Part shown: positions 4,865 to 18,401 of the stretch, piece by piece | Numbering within the stretch: position 1 is the first letter of the stretch | Layout: each line of letters begins with the position of its first letter | Assembly: GCA_050633245.1 (NCBI GenBank) | Contig: JBOEGD010000014.1 | Location: forward strand, 73,981-106,532 | Source of the DNA: Calditrichia bacterium | GTDB lineage: Bacteria > Calditrichota > Calditrichia > RBG-13-44-9 > J075 | Direction of reading: 5' to 3' | DNA length: 32,552 bases | Made by a program: the position numbers and the translations under genes | The notes under the pieces: model-generated | Databases searched by the model: none | The model's input: the letters and a program-made list of their open reading frames with translations, nothing else | What the model was told of the DNA's origin: nothing

Positions 4865-5401
4865 TTACTTCCCCATCATCTTCGCGTTGAACGCATCAGA
4901 TTGTCCACGCGCAATACTGAGCGTCTTCCACTTCTCACCAGCATGCCAGCGAGCAACAAACACAATCTGACCAATATGATAAGCATAATGCGCCAGCTGC
5001 CTTAGTAAGGCGTCAACTACACTGTGTGCTTCCCTGCGAATAGTGATGGTAGCGGCAAGGTCTTCCGGCGACAGCTTCTCGATTTCCGTTAAACAAACTG
5101 CCCAGGCAGATTCCCAATAAGCCATAAGCTCTTCTCGGCTGTTCTCAGAAGAAATAATAAACTCATTGTCCCGATGGCGATCGGGCTTTTCTCCATCCGT
5201 GGTCATAAAATCAGTCCAACGAGAAATCATGTTTCCAGCCATGTGTTTTACAATAACAGCCAGGCAATTTCCGCCGGAATGTATGTCGGCAAAAAACTGC
5301 TCGTCTGATACCTGAGCAAGAGCTTTTTCCGCCATTACTTTATACGATTTGTAGCGAGAGAGTGTTGATTGATGAAAGGCTTTACTTATAGAATTTGCCA
5401 T
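4865..5401 (-). CDS. DUF1572 / DinB-superfamily protein
   Basis: IVKHMAGNMISRWTDF, DGEKPDRHRDNEF, HYAYHIGQIV motifs (DinB His triad). Confidence 0.88.
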   Translation of the reverse strand: MANSISKAFHQSTLSRYKSYKVMAEKALAQVSDEQFFADIHSGGNCLAVIVKHMAGNMISRWTDFMTTDGEKPDRHRDNEFIISSENSREELMAYWESAWAVCLTEIEKLSPEDLAATITIRREAHSVVDALLRQLAHYAYHIGQIVFVARWHAGEKWKTLSIARGQSDAFNAKMMGK

Positions 5402-5402
5402 A

Positions 5403-6050
5403 TTATCCCTCCTCTTGGTAGCGTTTAAAGCCAGGGCTTAAATAAAATGTCCACAGTATATGAGCAGCGACGCTGCGAAAGGGCCGCCAGGGCTCTCCAT
5501 ATTCCATCATTGCATCCTGCCCGGGTCGCTTCTCCAATTTCTTTAATTTTTGCATTGCAACAACCAGCGCCAAATCGCCAACCGGCCAAATATCCGGGCG
5601 GCCCAGCGCCATCATTAGATACACATCGGTTGTCCAGCGACCGATGCCTTTTAGCTTAACCAGCTCGTTATGCACATCCTCATCAGGTAGATGAGCAAGA
5701 TTTTCCAGAACCAATTCTCGGCTGACAAGTGCCTGTGCCAATCCGCGCCCATAGGCTGTTTTTTGCCTGCTGAATCCAAGGTCTCGCAGCTTTTCATCCG
5801 TTAGCGGAAGAAATGTTTCAGGCGTAAGCTCGACTACATGCGCGCCCAGCTTATCGAATGTAGCTTGTGCAGAGGCCAGCGAAACCTGCTGTTCCAGAAT
5901 AATGTGCATAAGTGATGGAAAATTGGCTTCGCGCTGCACCATTTTGGGGTATCCGCAGCGTTTAACAAGCATGTCGAACATTGGGTCGATATTGCGAAGT
6001 GTATCAACGGCCTCGCGAAAGGTTGTGGAATTCAAAGCAAGTGAGGACAT
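5403..6050 (-). CDS. DNA-3-methyladenine glycosylase (AlkA-like, HhH-GPD)
   Basis: ILEQQVSLASA, HhH motif LKGIGRWT, PVGD, WRPFRS; start placed at ATG 6050 because GTG 6077 lies inside a terminator stem. Confidence 0.88.
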   Translation of the reverse strand: MSSLALNSTTFREAVDTLRNIDPMFDMLVKRCGYPKMVQREANFPSLMHIILEQQVSLASAQATFDKLGAHVVELTPETFLPLTDEKLRDLGFSRQKTAYGRGLAQALVSRELVLENLAHLPDEDVHNELVKLKGIGRWTTDVYLMMALGRPDIWPVGDLALVVAMQKLKKLEKRPGQDAMMEYGEPWRPFRSVAAHILWTFYLSPGFKRYQEEG

Positions 6051-14933: not shown

Positions 14934-16430
14934 CTAATATTGAATTATTTCAGGGCCGTTCTTCGTTTTAGGCTCCTGCGCCTTTTCTTTAGGCGCTTCA
15001 GCTTTCTCGGCTTCTTCTTTTGGCTTCTTTTCTTCAACCGGCTTTTCTTTCTTTGCCGGTGGTTTCTCTTTTACATTCTGCTGCTTTTTACCACTGGGTT
15101 TCGGCTTAGCGGGTGGCTCGTCTTTCAGCGTTATCTGGTCTGCAAGCAGGGTAACGCTTTTAGCGATGTCCAGCATAACCTCCTTCGTTTGCCCAAAAGA
15201 TTTTTCTTTCTCAGGACCAGGTCCCATTGCGATAATTCGAAGGTGAACACCGTCTTTAAATAAATAGAGCTGTCTGATAATAATTTCCATCATGCCGGTA
15301 ATCCGGATACCGCCTTCAAGCTGAAAACAATTCCAGCCTTTTTTTTCATCATTCAATTGCTTTAGCGGGTTCGCTCGCCCGTTAATGCGAATCTTCTTTT
15401 TATCCTTATCAAAAAGATGAAAGAGGCGGCATATCAACAGTGAATCATTTAAAGCATCTACACCCTCGTTGGCATTTTCTACATAGGTCTGGAATTTTTT
15501 CGGGGTTACATGCTTAAGATCTGTTTTTTCTGTCAGCTTTTTGTCTGTTAAAACACCCTGAACAGCAATACTATAGTAATCGACACCCGCACGATCGTTC
15601 TTGGAACCGGCGTTCCCTTTGCGATTGATAATAATGGTATTCCAAATGCTGTCAGAGGAAAGACCTGTCATAAAGTTTGTAAAACCGTCCAGCGTTGCAC
15701 CAATCATGGCAAACATCAAATTATCTCGCTCTTCCGGTGGCAGAAAAAGTGTTTGTGAAGACCAATCTCCCGGAAGGTTCAACTCAAGCCCAAGCTGCTT
15801 ACTTCGCATAGCGGTTCGTGACTTCGGTCCGCCTTTCAGGCGCTCTTTCCTCCATTTTGCAATTGCCTGTTCAGCACCTTTTCCGTCAACAATATCATAA
15901 AAGCCGGCCCAGTCTATACGCGTTCTAAAACCACCAGATTTATCTGCAGTATCAGAGAATAGAACGTTAAAGGTTTTGTTTGGCGTTTTTTCCAGGCTAG
16001 GGCGTCGCACCTCCCCAACCCTGAACCTGTCGACTTTCGGAGCCTTTTTGCCCTCTTTGTTAATGATCATGATGTTTTTATTCGTTACGGCATAAATCGT
16101 CCGCACCCTATCATGCATAAAATTTGGGATAATTGATCTAAAGATCAGCGCCAGCAAGCCAGCAAGAAGAAAAACTGCGCCATAGTCAAGAACCTTTCGA
16201 ACTCCATCCATACTAAAAGGTCCACGCCAGTTCTGGTAATTGAGGTCAATCATTCCCAGGTAAAAAATAACAGCTGCAATCAAAAGCAAAAATGCGGCAA
16301 TGCGTTTAAGTAGATCGTAGGTCCTCAACCAAAAGCGGGAACCATCTTCCCCATTAGGTTGTCCCCACCAAATAATTTCTTCGCCACCCTTTAGTTCTTT
16401 ACGTAATATTGAATTGGCTACATTCAGCAT
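14934..16430 (-). CDS. Hypothetical membrane protein: bacterial PH-like N-terminal module, uncharacterised soluble domain and K/E/P-rich tail
   Basis: ELKGGEEIIWWGQP, two TM helices and YAVTNKNI pattern; low-complexity C-terminal tail; ATG 16430 has GGGA upstream; divergent from the putative sRNA. Confidence 0.7.
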   Translation of the reverse strand: MLNVANSILRKELKGGEEIIWWGQPNGEDGSRFWLRTYDLLKRIAAFLLLIAAVIFYLGMIDLNYQNWRGPFSMDGVRKVLDYGAVFLLAGLLALIFRSIIPNFMHDRVRTIYAVTNKNIMIINKEGKKAPKVDRFRVGEVRRPSLEKTPNKTFNVLFSDTADKSGGFRTRIDWAGFYDIVDGKGAEQAIAKWRKERLKGGPKSRTAMRSKQLGLELNLPGDWSSQTLFLPPEERDNLMFAMIGATLDGFTNFMTGLSSDSIWNTIIINRKGNAGSKNDRAGVDYYSIAVQGVLTDKKLTEKTDLKHVTPKKFQTYVENANEGVDALNDSLLICRLFHLFDKDKKKIRINGRANPLKQLNDEKKGWNCFQLEGGIRITGMMEIIIRQLYLFKDGVHLRIIAMGPGPEKEKSFGQTKEVMLDIAKSVTLLADQITLKDEPPAKPKPSGKKQQNVKEKPPAKKEKPVEEKKPKEEAEKAEAPKEKAQEPKTKNGPEIIQY

Positions 16431-16501
16431 TGAAAGTCCCAATGGTTTATGATAGAAAGTGTCTCTTTTTTACAGTTTAAATAATGTACAACAATCAAAA
16501 A

Positions 16502-16652
16502 GACAAATCCAGAGGCAACCTTCTCTCTCACAAAAGATTTTCCGACAAAAAATTGCAGGATATTTAGCCACACTCCGACAAATAGGTGAAAAACACACCA
16601 CGGGGCAGACAAAAGATTTAAGCTCAATGCAGAAAAAAGCCCATTTTCTGTA
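16502..16652. promoter_or_regulatory. Candidate upstream activator region of the sigma54 promoter
   Basis: GACAAA at 16502, 16544, 16577, 16608 (spacings 42/33/31); TCCGACAAA twice; CAAAAGATTT twice; inverted repeat CAGAAAA-N7-TTTTCTG (16630-16650). Confidence 0.35.
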
Positions 16653-16693
16653 TATTACTACCGCAATAAAGAATAAAATTCGAAACATACGAA

Positions 16694-16710
16694 CTGGCAC
16701 ATTCATTGCT
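16694..16710 (+). promoter_or_regulatory. Sigma54 (RpoN) -24/-12 promoter
   Basis: CTGGCAC-ATTCA-TTGCT matches YTGGCAC-N5-TTGCW with exact GG-N10-GC spacing (GG 16696-16697, GC 16708-16709); predicted +1 near 16721. Confidence 0.82.
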
Positions 16711-16720
16711 GTTGTATAAG

Positions 16721-17125
16721 GCGTAGGACAGAGAGAAAAACAAAAAAAGAGGCATAAGACAAGCAAGGACGTTTGACTTTAAGAAAACAAGGACGTTGAC
16801 AGATGTTATTCAGACAAGGATGTTTGAAGTATAAACAATGATGTTTACAGGTTTAGCCAAGCAAGGATGTTTAGGTCGCAAACAAGGATGTAAGCAAGAG
16901 AATTCAAACAAGGATGTTTGAGAGTTACGAACAGGAACATTGACAAGTTTATTCAAACAAGGATGTTTGGGAACTATAGACAGGGACGTTGACCAGGCTA
17001 TTCAAACAGGGATGTTTGAGATGTTAGGCAACAGGGACGTTGGTACTAGCGGATTATAGGAAGTATAAGATGGTCTGGAATAGTTTCAACGCGCAGTCGT
17101 ATTTATACGGCTGCGCGTTCTTTTT
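16721..17125 (+). ncRNA. CsrB/RsmZ-like protein-sequestering sRNA (GGA-hairpin array), about 405 nt
   Basis: 10 exact CARGGAYGT copies, mostly capping short stems (e.g. TTCAAACA-AGGA-TGTTTGAG); 16 GGA on the + strand; bounded by a sigma54 promoter and an intrinsic terminator; no ORF of 60 aa or more across the array. Confidence 0.82.
17088..17125 (+). terminator. Intrinsic terminator of the putative sRNA
   Basis: 14-bp stem AACGCGCAGTCGTA / TACGGCTGCGCGTT with one U-G wobble that pairs only in the + RNA, UUUA loop, then CTTTTT. Confidence 0.88.
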
Positions 17126-17132
17126 GTAAGGC

Positions 17133-18401
17133 CTATGTTTTCAATTTCTTTTTCTTCGCCGCCGGGAAAAGAATATTATTCAAGATCAGACGATAGCCCG
17201 GACTGTTCTTATGAAGCTCCAGCTGAGTTGGGGGATCGCCTACAGCATGCGTATAGTCTTCGGGGTCATGTCCACCATAGAAAGTAAACGTACCTTTGCC
17301 GGAATTGCCATGAATATAGCGCACTTCATTGGTCCCTTCCACTTCTCCCATAACAACCAGTGAGGGCTTTAACAGCTCCCGGTTAAACATCGTTGTCTGT
17401 CCCATAAAACCCTTCACAATTCCCACATGATTTTGTGTCAGCATGGTAGGAACCGGATCGTACTTTGCAGAGAATTGAAACAGACTAAAATAATCGGTTT
17501 CGGGATCGCGAATGCGGGGCGCAAAGCTTGGAGGAATATCAATATCCGAGAATTCATAGAGATTGGGATCTGGATATAGCTTAAAATTGTGAAATGCAAG
17601 ACAGCGCGAATAGTCTAATTTGCCGGCGTAATCCGCCTGTGGCGAATCACCATCAAAGGGAACATCAACAATATCCAGCCCTTCAGCGGCTAAAGCAATG
17701 TCCAGAGCATCTGTCGCCGAGCACATCGCAAATACAAATCCACCACCATCGACATAGGCTTTTATTTCGCGCGCAACAGATTTTTTCAACTCTGAAACAC
17801 TGGGATATCCCATACGCTTTGCCATCGCTTCATTGGTGCGCACTTCTTCCAAATACCAAGCGGCATTGCGAAAAGCAGCGTAGAACTTTCCGAACTGGCC
17901 GGTAAAGTCCTCATGATGCAGATGCAGCCAATCGTAATCGTGCAGCTTATCGGTTAACACATCTTCATCATAAATTTTTTCGTATGGAATTTCAGAATAA
18001 ACCAGTGCCATGGTAACCGCATCATCCCATGGTTGTTTATTGGTCGGAGTATAGACGGCTATCTCCGGTGCTTTTTCCAACAGTACGCGATCCATATTTT
18101 CCGACTCAATGGTGGCATAAATGGAGTTTACTTCGCCAGCTCCAATCAATTCATATTTTACACCACGCACCCGACACTCGGCCTCAAGCCCCGGAAAAAC
18201 CGGCATTAAGAAAGATCCGCTACGGTAATTCAGCAGCCATTCCACATTGATGCCACGGTTAAGAGACCAAAAAGCAATACCATAGGCTTTCAAGTGATCG
18301 GATTGCACAAAATCCATTGGAACAAGGCAGTGCTGCGCAAAGCAAGGCACCATAGCCAGCCAAGTCAGTAGAAGTATGTTACGAAGACGTTGTCTTATCA
18401 T
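17133..18401 (-). CDS. Conserved exported protein of unknown function (FCB-type family) with GATase-like motifs
   Basis: Signal-peptide-like N-terminus; conserved blocks HLKAYG, WLLNYRSGSF, PWDDAVT, DWLHLHHEDFTGQ, FAMCSATD, GGHDPEDY, NSPGYRLILNN; ATGA overlap with the upstream TPR gene. Confidence 0.8.
   Translation of the reverse strand: MIRQRLRNILLLTWLAMVPCFAQHCLVPMDFVQSDHLKAYGIAFWSLNRGINVEWLLNYRSGSFLMPVFPGLEAECRVRGVKYELIGAGEVNSIYATIESENMDRVLLEKAPEIAVYTPTNKQPWDDAVTMALVYSEIPYEKIYDEDVLTDKLHDYDWLHLHHEDFTGQFGKFYAAFRNAAWYLEEVRTNEAMAKRMGYPSVSELKKSVAREIKAYVDGGGFVFAMCSATDALDIALAAEGLDIVDVPFDGDSPQADYAGKLDYSRCLAFHNFKLYPDPNLYEFSDIDIPPSFAPRIRDPETDYFSLFQFSAKYDPVPTMLTQNHVGIVKGFMGQTTMFNRELLKPSLVVMGEVEGTNEVRYIHGNSGKGTFTFYGGHDPEDYTHAVGDPPTQLELHKNSPGYRLILNNILFPAAKKKKLKT

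Follow-up and report, generated by a model that had tools for sequence, protein, structure and literature searches.

CsrA is among the most widespread post-transcriptional regulators, and the field divides the means of its antagonism between RNA sponges, which act in Gammaproteobacteria under BarA-UvrY/GacS-GacA control, and a protein, FliW, in other bacteria. The excerpt of PMC7366521 considered here calls FliW and sRNA antagonism so far 'mutually exclusive', and that of PMC7652899 leaves open whether the two mechanisms co-operate. The locus described here raises the question of whether both could serve one cell. It is a candidate RNA gene of about 405 nt (16721-17125, + strand) from an uncultured Calditrichota bacterium, and lies within the 32.5-kb stretch of DNA that was analysed (the window). 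A preliminary description, made from the sequence alone, had likened it to the CsrB and RsmZ RNAs. Our reading, to which we assign a probability of about 0.65, is that the locus is a sigma-54-dependent gene for a CsrA-titrating sponge RNA.

A GGA motif array between two genes of the other strand

The + strand of region 16721-17125 contains 16 GGA triplets, at positions 16726, 16767, 16791, 16818, 16865, 16886, 16912, 16934, 16961, 16970, 16984, 17010, 17035, 17051, 17059 and 17077, while the - strand contains none. All sixteen positions had been listed correctly in the preliminary description, as had the lack of GGA on the opposite strand. Recounting also gave its ten exact CARGGAYGT motifs. 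These ten are the only ones in the whole window, each lies on the + strand, and together they span 16764-17040; the expectation is 0.69 (sd 0.85, maximum 3), and none of 100 shuffles reached ten. The extended form ACARGGAYGT occurs eight times in the window against 0.16 expected, with as many in none of 100 shuffles. These eight sites agree with the published SELEX consensus for CsrA, RUACARGGAUGU (given in the portion of PMC7652899 drawn on here), in its ACA/GGA/GU core.

No long ORF is present within 16443-17132, so that the ORF-free gap reported earlier holds between the flanking ORFs listed in Table 1, and both neighbouring genes are opposite in strand to the candidate RNA. Three other readings of the region were dropped: a CRISPR array, as spacer/repeat logic is absent; a protein-coding sequence, as an ORF is absent; and a 3' UTR, because both neighbours lie on the other strand.

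The strict CARGGAYG motif forms only one cluster in the 6.35-Mb genome, and that cluster is the candidate RNA locus. A ranking of 506,278 windows on their ANGGA content per 300 nt puts the locus at only about 4th, and by GGA in hairpins (stem of at least 5, loop of 4-6) it is joint 2nd in the genome. The genome has further strand-biased, GGA-rich tandem repeats (Table 1), some of them denser by raw ANGGA count.

A consensus sigma-54 promoter and a predicted intrinsic terminator bracket the array

A full sigma-54 consensus, CTGGCAC-ATTCA-TTGCT (YTGGCAC-N5-TTGCW), lies at 16694-16710 with exact spacing, five nucleotides between TGGCAC and TTGC being the consensus spacing of sigma-54 promoters. 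Counting both strands, the 6.35-Mb genome has only 10 sites with the core TGGCAC-N5-TTGC; over 12.7 million positions, this puts the chance of finding it in a given 100-nt stretch of one strand at about 8e-5. Transcripts from such promoters start about 12 nt downstream of the GC of the -12 element. Because the C of that GC is at 16709, the start is placed at about 16721, which is where the preliminary description had begun its + strand RNA. No sigma-70-like promoter was found on the + strand within 16300-17400. The predicted 3' end, at 17125, is that of an intrinsic terminator whose U-tract is found on the + strand only, again in agreement with the strand assigned earlier. By eye, a word resembling TTTTC(C)GACA recurs as a putative activator site; it did not hold up in an unbiased 8-mer search for a shared upstream activator site, which gave 11 of 12 sequences as compared with 8-10 in 30 shuffles.

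Table 1. Features of the candidate RNA locus, its flanking ORFs and comparable repeats. Coordinates are those of the window unless a contig is named.
Feature	Position	Strand	Basis or remark
Flanking ORF	14934-16442	-	ORF list
Sigma-54 -24 element TGGCAC, with a C before it at 16694	16695..16700	+	sequence match
Sigma-54 -12 element TTGC, followed by T	16706..16710	+	sequence match
Predicted transcription start (+-2 nt)	16721	+	inferred from promoter geometry
A-rich 5' leader, one GGA (16726)	16721..16759	+	mostly unpaired in MFE fold
Hairpin 1, CAAGC-AAGGAC-GUUUG, 5 bp, 1 G.U	16760..16775	+	
Core of tandem repeats, 5.3 copies of a 49-nt unit, each unit with a long and a short GGA hairpin	16786..17042	+	
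Hairpin 2, AAC-AAGGAC-GUU, 3 bp	16786..16797	+	
Hairpin 3, UUCAGACA-AGGA-UGUUUGAA, 8 bp, 1 G.U	16809..16828	+	
Degenerate repeat copy AACAAUGAUGUUUAC, GGA decayed to UGA	16834..16850	+	repeat-unit alignment
Hairpin 4, AAGCA-AGGA-UGUUU, 5 bp, 1 G.U	16859..16872	+	
Hairpin 5, ACA-AGGA-UGU, 3 bp	16882..16891	+	
Hairpin 6, UUCAAACA-AGGA-UGUUUGAG, 8 bp, 1 G.U	16903..16922	+	
Decayed copy ACAGGAACAU with GGA 16934, simple hairpin absent	16931..16940	+	repeat-unit alignment
Hairpin 7, UUCAAACA-AGGA-UGUUUGGG, 8 bp, 2 G.U, extra GGA (16970) in 3' arm	16952..16971	+	
Hairpin 8, GAC-AGGGAC-GUU, 3 bp, 1 G.U	16979..16990	+	
Hairpin 9, UUCAAACA-GGGA-UGUUUGAG, 8 bp, 1 G.U	17001..17020	+	
Hairpin 10, CAAC-AGGGAC-GUUG, 4 bp	17029..17042	+	
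3' region, three GGA (17051, 17059, 17077)	17043..17087	+	
Intrinsic terminator, 14-bp stem (8 G-C), 4-nt loop, then CUUUUUGU	17088..17127	+	
Flanking ORF	17133-18401	-	ORF list
Other GGA-bearing tandem repeats of the genome	C24:70751, C6:29434, C9:60669, C36:76801, C1:224901		strand-biased

Hairpins and repeat units

The candidate RNA has a minimum free energy of -102.3 kcal/mol on the + strand (z = -5.8), and the - strand of the locus likewise folds well (z = -5.25). Simple hairpin loops (at least 3 bp, loop 4-8) hold 13 of the 16 GGA, and the GGA-loop hairpins quoted in the preliminary description are among the structures present; eight G.U pairs were counted in the ten motif hairpins. GGA triplets are unpaired with a mean probability of 0.71, other triplets with one of 0.41, and only 2 of 5000 random triplet sets reach the GGA value.

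The array is laid out as six units of about 49 nt, with two GGA-loop hairpins in each. Units are down to 69-74% identity, yet GGA and pairing are retained in 10 of 12 copies. Across the six units, pairing is found in 90.9% of cells, compared with 29-47% when the partners are slid. Covariation among the six internal units, which are paralogous copies inside one array, is modest, with 29 of 500 and 56 of 500 shuffles doing equally well.

Regular repeat spacing and inverted-repeat cores are also what would be seen in an iteron-like array of binding sites acting as DNA and never transcribed. We consider such an array very improbable. The eight G.U-only pairs and the strand asymmetry of 16 GGA against 0 would be meaningless in double-stranded DNA, and the array is framed precisely by its promoter and terminator.

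Sister RNAs and related arrays

Three predicted RNAs that share the architecture of the candidate are encoded in one genome of the same family, G004. Two of these, G004:C357 and G004:C518, were first found by motif-only searches; each has a sigma-54 consensus 28-36 nt ahead of its first CARGGA motif, and each has a terminator. The sequence of hairpin 10 recurs identically in G004:C357, and the G004:C518 RNA is about 164 nt long with 6 GGA. GGA is preferentially unpaired in all three RNAs (50, 233 and 354 of 5000 random sets reach the value), and none of the three matched Rfam at E <= 0.01.

Searched with a composite pattern of promoter plus GGA, 7 of 86 genomes yielded 11 matches, against none for the reversed control. 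By pattern searches, the full architecture is limited to two of 86 Calditrichota genomes, the source genome (G000) and G004. A single-hairpin pattern matched 41 places against 11 control matches; most of these were rejected as coding-sequence coincidences, and KDEM-type matches in G001, G010 and G013 were rejected as coding repeats. A metagenome search yielded at least 80 loci. Among those listed, only L214/L192, L203 and perhaps L197 have the look of a GGA-array RNA, the remainder being judged mRNA-like or chance. Contigs L214 and L192 carry a putatively sigma-54-driven GGA-hairpin array that spans about 600 nt and contains about 40 GGA. A metagenome scan that required two copies of the long hairpin found none.

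In the related genomes G014 and G006, near-perfect palindromes centred on GGA (GACAAGC-AAGGAT-GCTTGTC) form arrays; those of G014 are spread over three contigs and flank a gene for Y1_Tnp (PF01797, E = 2.3e-7). The arrays of both genomes were judged REP-like and were excluded from the covariation evidence. They bring up the possibility that the candidate locus, too, is a REP/BIME-like cluster, its palindromes being mobile and dispersed by a RAYT-type (Y1) transposase. The odds of this appear slight indeed: the source genome has a single motif cluster, a transposase is absent among the annotated neighbouring ORFs, and the units are imperfect, strand-asymmetric and provided with promoter and terminator.

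Lineage and synteny

Nearly all of the proteins most closely related to the flanking 422-aa protein (62-83% identity) carry a Calditrichaceae, Calditrichia or Calditrichota label. By this comparison the source genome groups with Calditrichota and is not gammaproteobacterial, in line with the FCB-related lineage suggested at the outset from the flanking genes. BLAST over 41 relatives returned no array orthologue, only one chance 23-nt match (G013). The scan of related genomes for GGA-hairpin arrays at the syntenic site, which the preliminary description had suggested, gave a negative result: none of 80 half-syntenic loci around relatives of the flanking gene has the array. The side with the TPR and 422-aa genes is retained at 33 of 36 loci and the 502-aa/Dus side at none of 36; the candidate RNA locus is at a synteny breakpoint.

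The missing orthologue and the breakpoint would suit a plain tandem repeat, in which GGA and hairpins are by-products of the duplication of a palindromic unit, the promoter is a chance occurrence and it is the convergent 422-aa gene that uses the terminator. Tandem Repeats Finder does report the core as a repeat (49-nt unit x 5.3, 69% matches, score 179), and several other strand-biased, GGA-bearing repeats exist in the genome. We nevertheless hold this explanation to be improbable. An exact sigma-54 consensus has the low chance expectation given above, and the U-tract of the terminator is on the + strand only. The genome scan found the other repeats to be without CARGGAYG, and flanking stems and a sigma-54 consensus are absent in the stretches examined. 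Units that have diverged to the extent described above still keep GGA and pairing. The sister RNAs of G004, finally, are not tandem copies, and have promoter type, GGA loops and terminator in common with the candidate RNA.

CsrA, FliW and sigma-54 in the source genome

The genome-wide search for csrA and fliW that the preliminary description had envisaged returned both genes. There is a single csrA gene (PF02599, 94.5 bits, G000:C7:192407-192565), with an 82-aa product. Residues 1-52 of this CsrA align without gaps to RsmE of the RsmE-RNA structure 2JPP, the RNA-binding core is conserved with respect to 2JPP, 1Y00 and 2BTI, and the protein carries a C-terminal extension and Asn55. The fliW gene (100 bits) is an orphan, not adjacent to csrA, and has a sigma-54 consensus of its own. 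A model of the CsrA-FliW complex scored 0.84 against 0.14 for the best control, with contacts centred on residue 55, a score that may reflect memory of a like complex already solved (PDB 5DMB). The genome encodes rpoN (Sigma54_DBD, 198 bits) and has 37 Sigma54_activat matches, of which 33 score at least 190 bits. A search for Hfq in this 97%-complete genome found none.

The proposed sponge would operate as follows. A stand-alone ncRNA gene would be read by sigma-54 RNA polymerase after activation by an enhancer-binding protein, and the transcript, of about 405 nt, would stop at the intrinsic terminator. The RNA would fold into about ten short hairpins that present A(R)GGA(Y) in their loops, with 16 GGA overall. 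Because each CsrA dimer has two RNA-binding surfaces, one RNA could bind roughly 5 to 8 dimers, and the sponge would thereby strip CsrA from target mRNAs in the style of CsrB and RsmZ.

Promoter and terminator are silent on the partner of the RNA. Its 8-bp stems exceed most SELEX hairpins, which have four or fewer pairs in the portion of PMC7652899 drawn on here, and the Rfam Csr models stay below threshold. These points would allow a real sigma-54-dependent ncRNA that does not titrate CsrA but sponges or scaffolds a different RNA-binding protein, acts by base pairing as an sRNA, or has a structural role in which the GGA loops serve some other partner, a reading that seems to us rather unlikely. 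The eight ACARGGAYGU sites correspond to the core that is invariant in the SELEX consensus of CsrA, a CsrA with an intact RNA-binding core is present, Hfq was not found, and we know of no other family that binds GGA loops.

Candidate CsrA targets

A conserved mRNA leader, UUCAGGGAUGAA...UUCARGGAAGAAU-AUG, is found in 7 genera, the source genome included, upstream of a lipoprotein-like gene. It combines a GGA hairpin with a GGA at the ribosome-binding site and, to judge by these motifs, is a likely CsrA target. The hairpin of this leader (termed class B; in the source genome on G000:C14, upstream of 30314) is invariant, so that no covariation can be obtained from it, and the class-B protein belongs to no Pfam family. 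The flagellin leader has three GGA, one of them at the SD, which is suggestive of flagellin as perhaps another target. A FlgB-like ORF fragment had no match in Pfam.

Comparison with known systems

Rfam gave no match in the window at the gathering level. The best score was that of CsrC (RF00084), whose 22.9 bits (E = 1.1e-4) compare with a gathering threshold of 61, with a low-scoring alignment that runs end to end along the candidate RNA. This result fits the divergent or independent origin contemplated in the preliminary description, and an independent evolutionary origin of the candidate RNA is plausible.

Like CsrB and CsrC of Escherichia coli (RF00018/RF00084, clan CL00106), the candidate is a non-coding RNA of a few hundred nucleotides with an intrinsic terminator and many GGA in hairpin loops or single-stranded stretches, 16 in 405 nt; CsrB contains 22 GGA and takes up about 18 CsrA subunits (PMC7652899, in the portion used). 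Unlike these BarA-UvrY-dependent RNAs, it has a sigma-54 promoter, belongs to another phylum, consists of a recent-looking 49-nt tandem duplication and comes from a host that also has FliW. UvrY/GacA boxes, searched with a consensus of this palindromic box at up to 3 mismatches, number 9 in the window against 11.2 expected, with none upstream of the RNA. RsmY, RsmZ and RsmX of Pseudomonas and Legionella similarly offer ANGGA in hairpin loops to RsmA/RsmE, and RsmY/RsmZ are close in size to the G004:C518 RNA; they are GacA-dependent rather than sigma-54-dependent in the excerpt of PMC7366521.

The FliW-CsrA switch of Bacillus subtilis, Campylobacter jejuni and Geobacillus (PDB 5DMB) resembles the present system in joining FliW to a CsrA with a C-terminal extension and Asn55. 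It differs in that here fliW lies away from csrA and an RNA sponge candidate co-exists with it. RsmA-binding sRNAs outside Gammaproteobacteria have been predicted by InvenireSRNA (excerpt of PMC5568370) and, in the excerpt of PMC11934962, in Geobacter sulfurreducens, a FliW-bearing non-gammaproteobacterium. Those RNAs are, like ours, GGA-rich, terminator-ended and intergenic, and are predicted only. As the excerpts present them, two of three are antisense to genes, promoter class is not given, and Calditrichota and sigma-54 fall outside their coverage.

In its input, the candidate would resemble Qrr and NrsZ, small RNAs made from -24/-12 promoters under an enhancer-binding protein. Qrr of Vibrio is reportedly a sigma-54-dependent sRNA controlled by an enhancer-binding protein. 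To our knowledge, sigma-54 sRNAs of the Qrr/NrsZ type have not been described as CsrA sponges, and our literature searches turned up no sigma-54-dependent CsrA sponge. For NrsZ of Pseudomonas, sigma-54 dependence is stated in the excerpt of PMC4253122.

Discussion

As a sponge candidate the locus is of textbook quality. Its transcriptional input, sigma-54, would be a different one, and its genome has a FliW-type CsrA and an orphan fliW. The promoter, the presence of fliW and the sister RNAs in one related genome are additions to the preliminary description. A broader scheme, which we put forward tentatively and regard as possible rather than probable, is that one CsrA has two antagonists, FliW and an independently arisen, sigma-54-driven sponge built by tandem duplication of a two-hairpin unit, and that such arrays form a wider class, so far unrecognised, in uncultured bacteria.

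The locus may show both means of turning CsrA off, RNA and FliW, in one cell, and it supplies a test case for the FliW-plus-sRNA question in a third, non-proteobacterial phylum. If CsrA is bound, sponge RNAs have either arisen repeatedly or go back much further than supposed, and the FliW and sRNA layers could be stacked. Searches that combine motif and promoter could then reveal Csr-like circuits across many uncultured phyla.

A tandem array of CsrA-type hairpins

The candidate CsrA sponge RNA gene at 16721-17125 carries 16 GGA triplets on the plus strand, each exactly where the preliminary description placed it, and none on the minus strand, as also stated there. The same holds for the ten exact CARGGAYGT motifs in the window, which all lie on the plus strand between 16764 and 17040; 0.69 are expected, and none of 100 dinucleotide shuffles of the window reached ten. 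Eight of the ten sites extend to ACARGGAYGT (0.16 expected). The SELEX consensus for CsrA is RUACARGGAUGU, in which ACA and GGA are invariant and GU nearly so, with GGA mostly within a hexaloop closed by AC/GU (passages of PMC7652899). Judged by sequence, the array sites fit this published description.

At 16786-17042, Tandem Repeats Finder detects 5.3 copies of a 49-nt unit, with 69% matches. The unit alignment has six units, each with one long and one short hairpin. Thirteen of the 16 GGA triplets lie within the loop of a simple hairpin, which bears out the claim that most are so placed. In the thermodynamic ensemble, the mean unpaired probability is 0.71 for GGA triplets vs 0.41 for other triplets, and 2 of 5000 random triplet sets match the GGA value. 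The plus-strand RNA folds at -102.3 kcal/mol (z = -5.8) and the minus-strand RNA at -77.1 (z = -5.25); because both strands fold well, the strand cannot be assigned from folding energy alone. The G.U pairs are informative, as had been argued: the ten motif hairpins hold eight, and each of these would become an A.C mismatch in the opposite strand.

Standard pairs make up 90.9% of cells across the six internal units; sliding the 3' partners lowers this to 29-47%. Covariation, proposed earlier as a check on the hairpins, appears as compensatory changes at two pairs, but 29 to 56 of 500 shuffles equal it and the copies are paralogues, so this internal signal is modest, supportive and not decisive.

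Promoter, terminator and genomic setting

The sequence CTGGCAC-ATTCA-TTGCT at 16694-16710, plus strand, fully matches the sigma-54 -24/-12 consensus. Only 10 TGGCAC-N5-TTGC sites occur on both strands of the 6.35-Mb genome (20 when either C or T is allowed at the final position of the first element, TGGCAY-N5-TTGC), so the odds of a chance site on the right strand of a 100-nt stretch are about 8e-5. The -12 GC occupies 16708-16709, and from there usual sigma-54 geometry predicts a start at about 16721, which coincides with the 5' coordinate first assigned to the RNA. An intrinsic terminator closes the interval. No sigma-70-like promoter was found on the plus strand of 16300-17400. The interval holds no ORF of note, in keeping with the gap first described, and the neighbouring genes (14934-16442 and 17133-18401) are both on the minus strand, which rules out a leader or 3' UTR.

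The candidate RNA falls short of the Rfam thresholds for CsrB, CsrC and RsmZ, consistent with its description as unannotated. It resembles those RNAs in its proposed mode of action but lacks their GacA/UvrY-type control, having a sigma-54-type promoter instead. Literature searches found no paper joining Caldithrix and CsrA and, in abstracts and passages, no sigma-54-dependent CsrA sponge.

An alternative is that the array is simply one of several GGA-rich tandem repeats in the genome. Other strand-biased repeats of this kind do exist, all outside the window (see table); ranked by raw ANGGA density, the locus comes only about fourth of 506,278 windows, and when hairpins are strictly defined it shares second place in the genome. 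It is set apart from them by the CsrA-consensus motif, forming the only CARGGAYG cluster in the genome, by the sigma-54 site and by the one-sided terminator. Arrays of GGA-centred palindromes may also be REP-like elements and need not be sponges. Arrays of near-perfect palindromes that mimic CsrA sites (GACAAGC-AAGGAT-GCTTGTC and GACAGGC-AAGGAT-GCCTGTC) lie on several contigs of two relatives, G014 and G006, those of G014 on either side of a Y1_Tnp (IS200-like) gene; none of these arrays entered the RNA family count.

CsrA and FliW

The assembly (59 contigs, 6.35 Mb, 45% G+C, 97% complete) contains the window at 73981-106532 of contig C14; no 16S gene was found in it. The host had been taken for FCB-related and not gammaproteobacterial, and the closest relatives (62-83% identity) of the 422-aa protein encoded at 17133-18401 (minus strand) are indeed nearly all labelled Calditrichaceae, Calditrichia or Calditrichota. 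This protein is highly conserved, matches no Pfam family and has 591 confirmed relatives. The best 80 loci (57-83% identity) carry titles from Calditrichota, Bacteroidota, Ignavibacteria, Zixiibacteriota, Cloacimonadota, Latescibacterota, Krumholzibacteriota/Krumholzibacteriia and Neomarinimicrobiota.

The CsrA that the sponge reading presupposes is encoded by one gene beside grpE/dnaK (82 aa, 94.5 bits), and the search for FliW, likewise proposed earlier, finds one (100 bits). The genome also has a sigma-54 gene (198 bits) and 37 Sigma54_activat matches, 33 of them strong and none within the window; Hfq was not found in the assembly. Residues 1-52 of CsrA align without gaps with RsmE of the RsmE-RNA complex (2JPP), and residues 2-81 with FliW-bound Geobacillus CsrA (5DMB), an alignment that takes in Glu54-Asn55 as well as the C-terminal extension. 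Modelled together, the CsrA dimer and FliW gave a complex scoring 0.84 vs 0.14 for the best control, with at least 94% of contacts common to three runs, partner pLDDT of at least 84 and contacts centred on residue 55; among 78 solved complexes 51 reach the mark applied, as do 2 of 108 mismatched pairs. Because the like complex 5DMB is already solved, the model is a likeness to it and no proof that this pair binds.

Within Calditrichota, csrA occurs in 77 of 86 genomes, and fliW only in the order containing the genome under study (families f1 15/15, f2 4/4, f3 16/17; other families 0/49). Many genomes of this order have two csrA copies. The stand-alone paralogue is almost invariant, with an REE motif and a C-terminal extension; the fliW-adjacent paralogue is more divergent, with YRQEL or YRMEL. 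The genome under study and G004, of the same family but a different genus, have the stand-alone copy only, and their fliW genes adjoin no csrA, unlike those of many relatives. CsrA of G038, from a FliW-less family (L314), has 66 aa and no C-terminal extension.

Sister RNAs

A DNA search of 41 relatives for an orthologue returned only a chance 23-nt match, and no stretch carrying the long hairpin twice turned up in a metagenome scan. The expectation of similar arrays at the syntenic site failed: the surroundings of the flanking gene's relatives, 80 loci in all, contain none. Synteny is kept on one side only, the 422-aa gene following a TPR protein gene in 33 of 36 loci checked and the 502-aa/Dus side being kept in 0 of 36.

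Pattern searches used species-representative genomes, with motif-only and composite patterns run over the 86 phylum genomes. Motif-only searches identified GGA-rich RNAs in G004, on contigs C357 and C518. Both have TGGCAY-N5-TTGC 28-36 nt before the first CARGGA (54 nt in the window RNA) and an intrinsic terminator; as they were found by motif alone and the promoter and terminator seen afterwards, the predicted architecture is an independent recurrence. The composite promoter-plus-GGA pattern gave 11 matches in 7 of the 86 genomes, a third G004 RNA among them, and its reversed control none. Each of the three G004 RNAs keeps GGA preferentially unpaired (50, 233 and 354 of 5000 random sets reach the values), and no Rfam family recognises any of them. 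A relaxed pattern added no member over the phylum genomes, which leaves the full architecture in 2 of 86; the distribution of these putative sponge RNAs is patchy.

Small GGA-hairpin RNA candidates with a terminator and no exact sigma-54 consensus were seen in three further genomes, and G006 likewise has a GGA-rich small RNA or leader lacking an exact site. Such elements indicate that sigma-54 is not the universal promoter of CsrA-type elements. Two species of one genus share an element of about 110 nt at a gene 3' end, with four GGA (CAACAGGGAUGUUGAUGGAUUGG), a terminator and no sigma-54 site, which may be a 3'-UTR-derived GGA RNA. CsrA-type RNA elements thus look common in the order, as far as such sequence features go.

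A metagenome scan with the architecture pattern returned at least 120 stretches and, among the matches listed, at least 80 loci, mostly noise. Two near-identical contigs with 55% G+C (L214 and L192) have a sigma-54 consensus, TTGGCACGCAGCTTGCTT, followed by an array of about 600 nt with about 40 GGA in hairpin units of about 66 nt; one contig has a unit more than the other, and 3' of the array come a 60-codon ORF and a terminator. A further stretch, L203:780-960 (plus strand), has the consensus, then an RNA of about 130 nt, similar in size to RsmY/Z, with five GGA, hairpins CUACAAGGAUGUAG and GGCAAAGGAUUGCC, and a terminator. Judging by these loci, sigma-54-driven GGA arrays may also exist beyond the genome under study. 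Three other matches (L259, L256 and L226) share their contig with csrA. In L256 and L259 the gene is on the strand of the match, 0.6-1.5 kb downstream of it, and in L226 about 8.4 kb away; the L256 and L259 matches are probably sigma-54-driven flagellar operons containing csrA.

Coordinates of features (window positions unless a contig or stretch is named; G000 is the genome under study, C its contigs, L stretches from relatives or metagenomes)
Feature	Location	Strand	Details
Long hairpin of unit		+	UUCAAACA-AGGA-UGUUUGAG type; unit alignment
Short hairpin of unit		+	AAC-ARGGAC-GUU type; unit alignment
Decayed repeat copies (2)	16834-16850, 16931-16940	+	unit alignment
Intrinsic terminator	17088-17127	+	14-bp stem-loop, 8 G-C, then CUUUUUGU; U-tract on + only
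Tandem units, ACATGGATGAACAGAATAAAAA type	C24:70751, C36:76801, C6:29434		G000
(GGAGACAA)n run next to (CTTTCTGC)n run	C9:60669		G000
Tandem repeat, 19-nt GATTGGAGCAGTTTAAAGA unit	C1:224901		G000
REP/RAYT-like arrays	L095:700-900 (+), L089, L103; L085:1490-1660 (-)		G014; G006
fliW-linked csrA	L305, L307, L311		
Stand-alone csrA	L306, L308, L312, L309, L001		
Sister RNA	G004:C357		~321 nt, 15 GGA; identical CAAC-AGGGAC-GUUG hairpin
Sister RNA	G004:C518		~164 nt, 6 GGA
Sister RNA	G004:C209		~251 nt, 10 GGA; composite pattern
Small RNA candidate	L147:1440-1600	-	G016:C65
Small RNA candidate	L150:760-960	-	G001:C11
Small RNA candidate	L165:990-1150	+	G023
~110-nt element	L117:100-330, L118:20-250	-	G013, G010
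Metagenome array	L214, about 5260-5877 in + coordinates	-	
Metagenome array	L192	-	
Class-B leaders	L173:1495-1570 (-), L174:1501-1583 (+), L180:1501-1584 (+), L172:648-726 (+), L177:1488-1601 (-), L319:1492-1565 (-), L322:23-71 (-)		L322 is the G000 copy
Sigma-54 site, TGGCAT-N5-TTGC	G000:C14:6445-6459 = L002:1945-1959	-	directly upstream of orphan fliW

Putative targets

The composite search also returned a gene, here called class-B, in which a sigma-54 consensus is followed by a leader, UUCAGGGAUGAA...UUCAGGGAAGAAU (3' part also written UUCARGGAAGAAU-AUG), and the start codon. The leader is conserved in seven genera, and the product is a conserved, lipoprotein-like protein of about 500 aa with no Pfam family. 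Six of seven have the exact consensus (G001, G002, G004, G020, G035 and later G006); the DNA upstream of the copy in the genome under study (C14:30314-28842) lacks it, while the twin-GGA leader is kept and its second GGA falls at the ribosome-binding site. CsrA-repressed mRNAs such as glgC classically combine a high-affinity hairpin with a site that covers the SD (passages of PMC7652899), and the class-B mRNA, with a GGA hairpin and a GGA at the SD, is a probable CsrA target. Because the hairpin is invariant in the seven genera, the leader yields no covariation.

Elsewhere in the genome, one TGGCAY-N5-TTGC site precedes a gene with a Flg_bb_rod domain and one a putative FlgB-like ORF; the flagellin leader has a GGA at the SD. 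Outside the window, at C1:239568 (minus strand), the consensus lies before the gene for a 192-aa lipoprotein. The leader of this gene contains a perfect GUUACA-AGGA-UGUAAC hairpin as well as ACACGGAGG (GGA at the SD), a layout that makes this mRNA CsrA-target-like. With about 33 strong activator genes, a common sigma factor does not imply a common regulon, and an upstream activator word spotted by eye failed an unbiased test.

Proposed mechanism

Sponge RNA and FliW antagonism are called 'mutually exclusive' to date in a passage of PMC7366521, and whether both antagonist types co-operate 'remains to be determined' according to one of PMC7652899. RsmA-binding sRNAs have been predicted computationally in selected genomes, FliW-bearing Geobacter included; these predictions are unverified (passages of PMC5568370 and PMC11934962). 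The available passages of a 2026 survey of CsrA diversity (PMC13443453) mention neither Calditrichota nor sponges outside Gammaproteobacteria.

We propose that an enhancer-binding protein would activate sigma-54 polymerase at 16694-16710, yielding an RNA of about 405 nt that presents about ten ARGGAY loops and six further GGA. As each CsrA dimer has two binding surfaces and would bridge adjacent sites, a single RNA could carry some 5-8 dimers. The pool of free CsrA would then drop, allowing translation of CsrA-repressed mRNAs, among them that of the class-B lipoprotein gene and perhaps flagellin. FliW would restrain this CsrA as well, as a second brake of allosteric type; the fliW gene, too, has a sigma-54 consensus.
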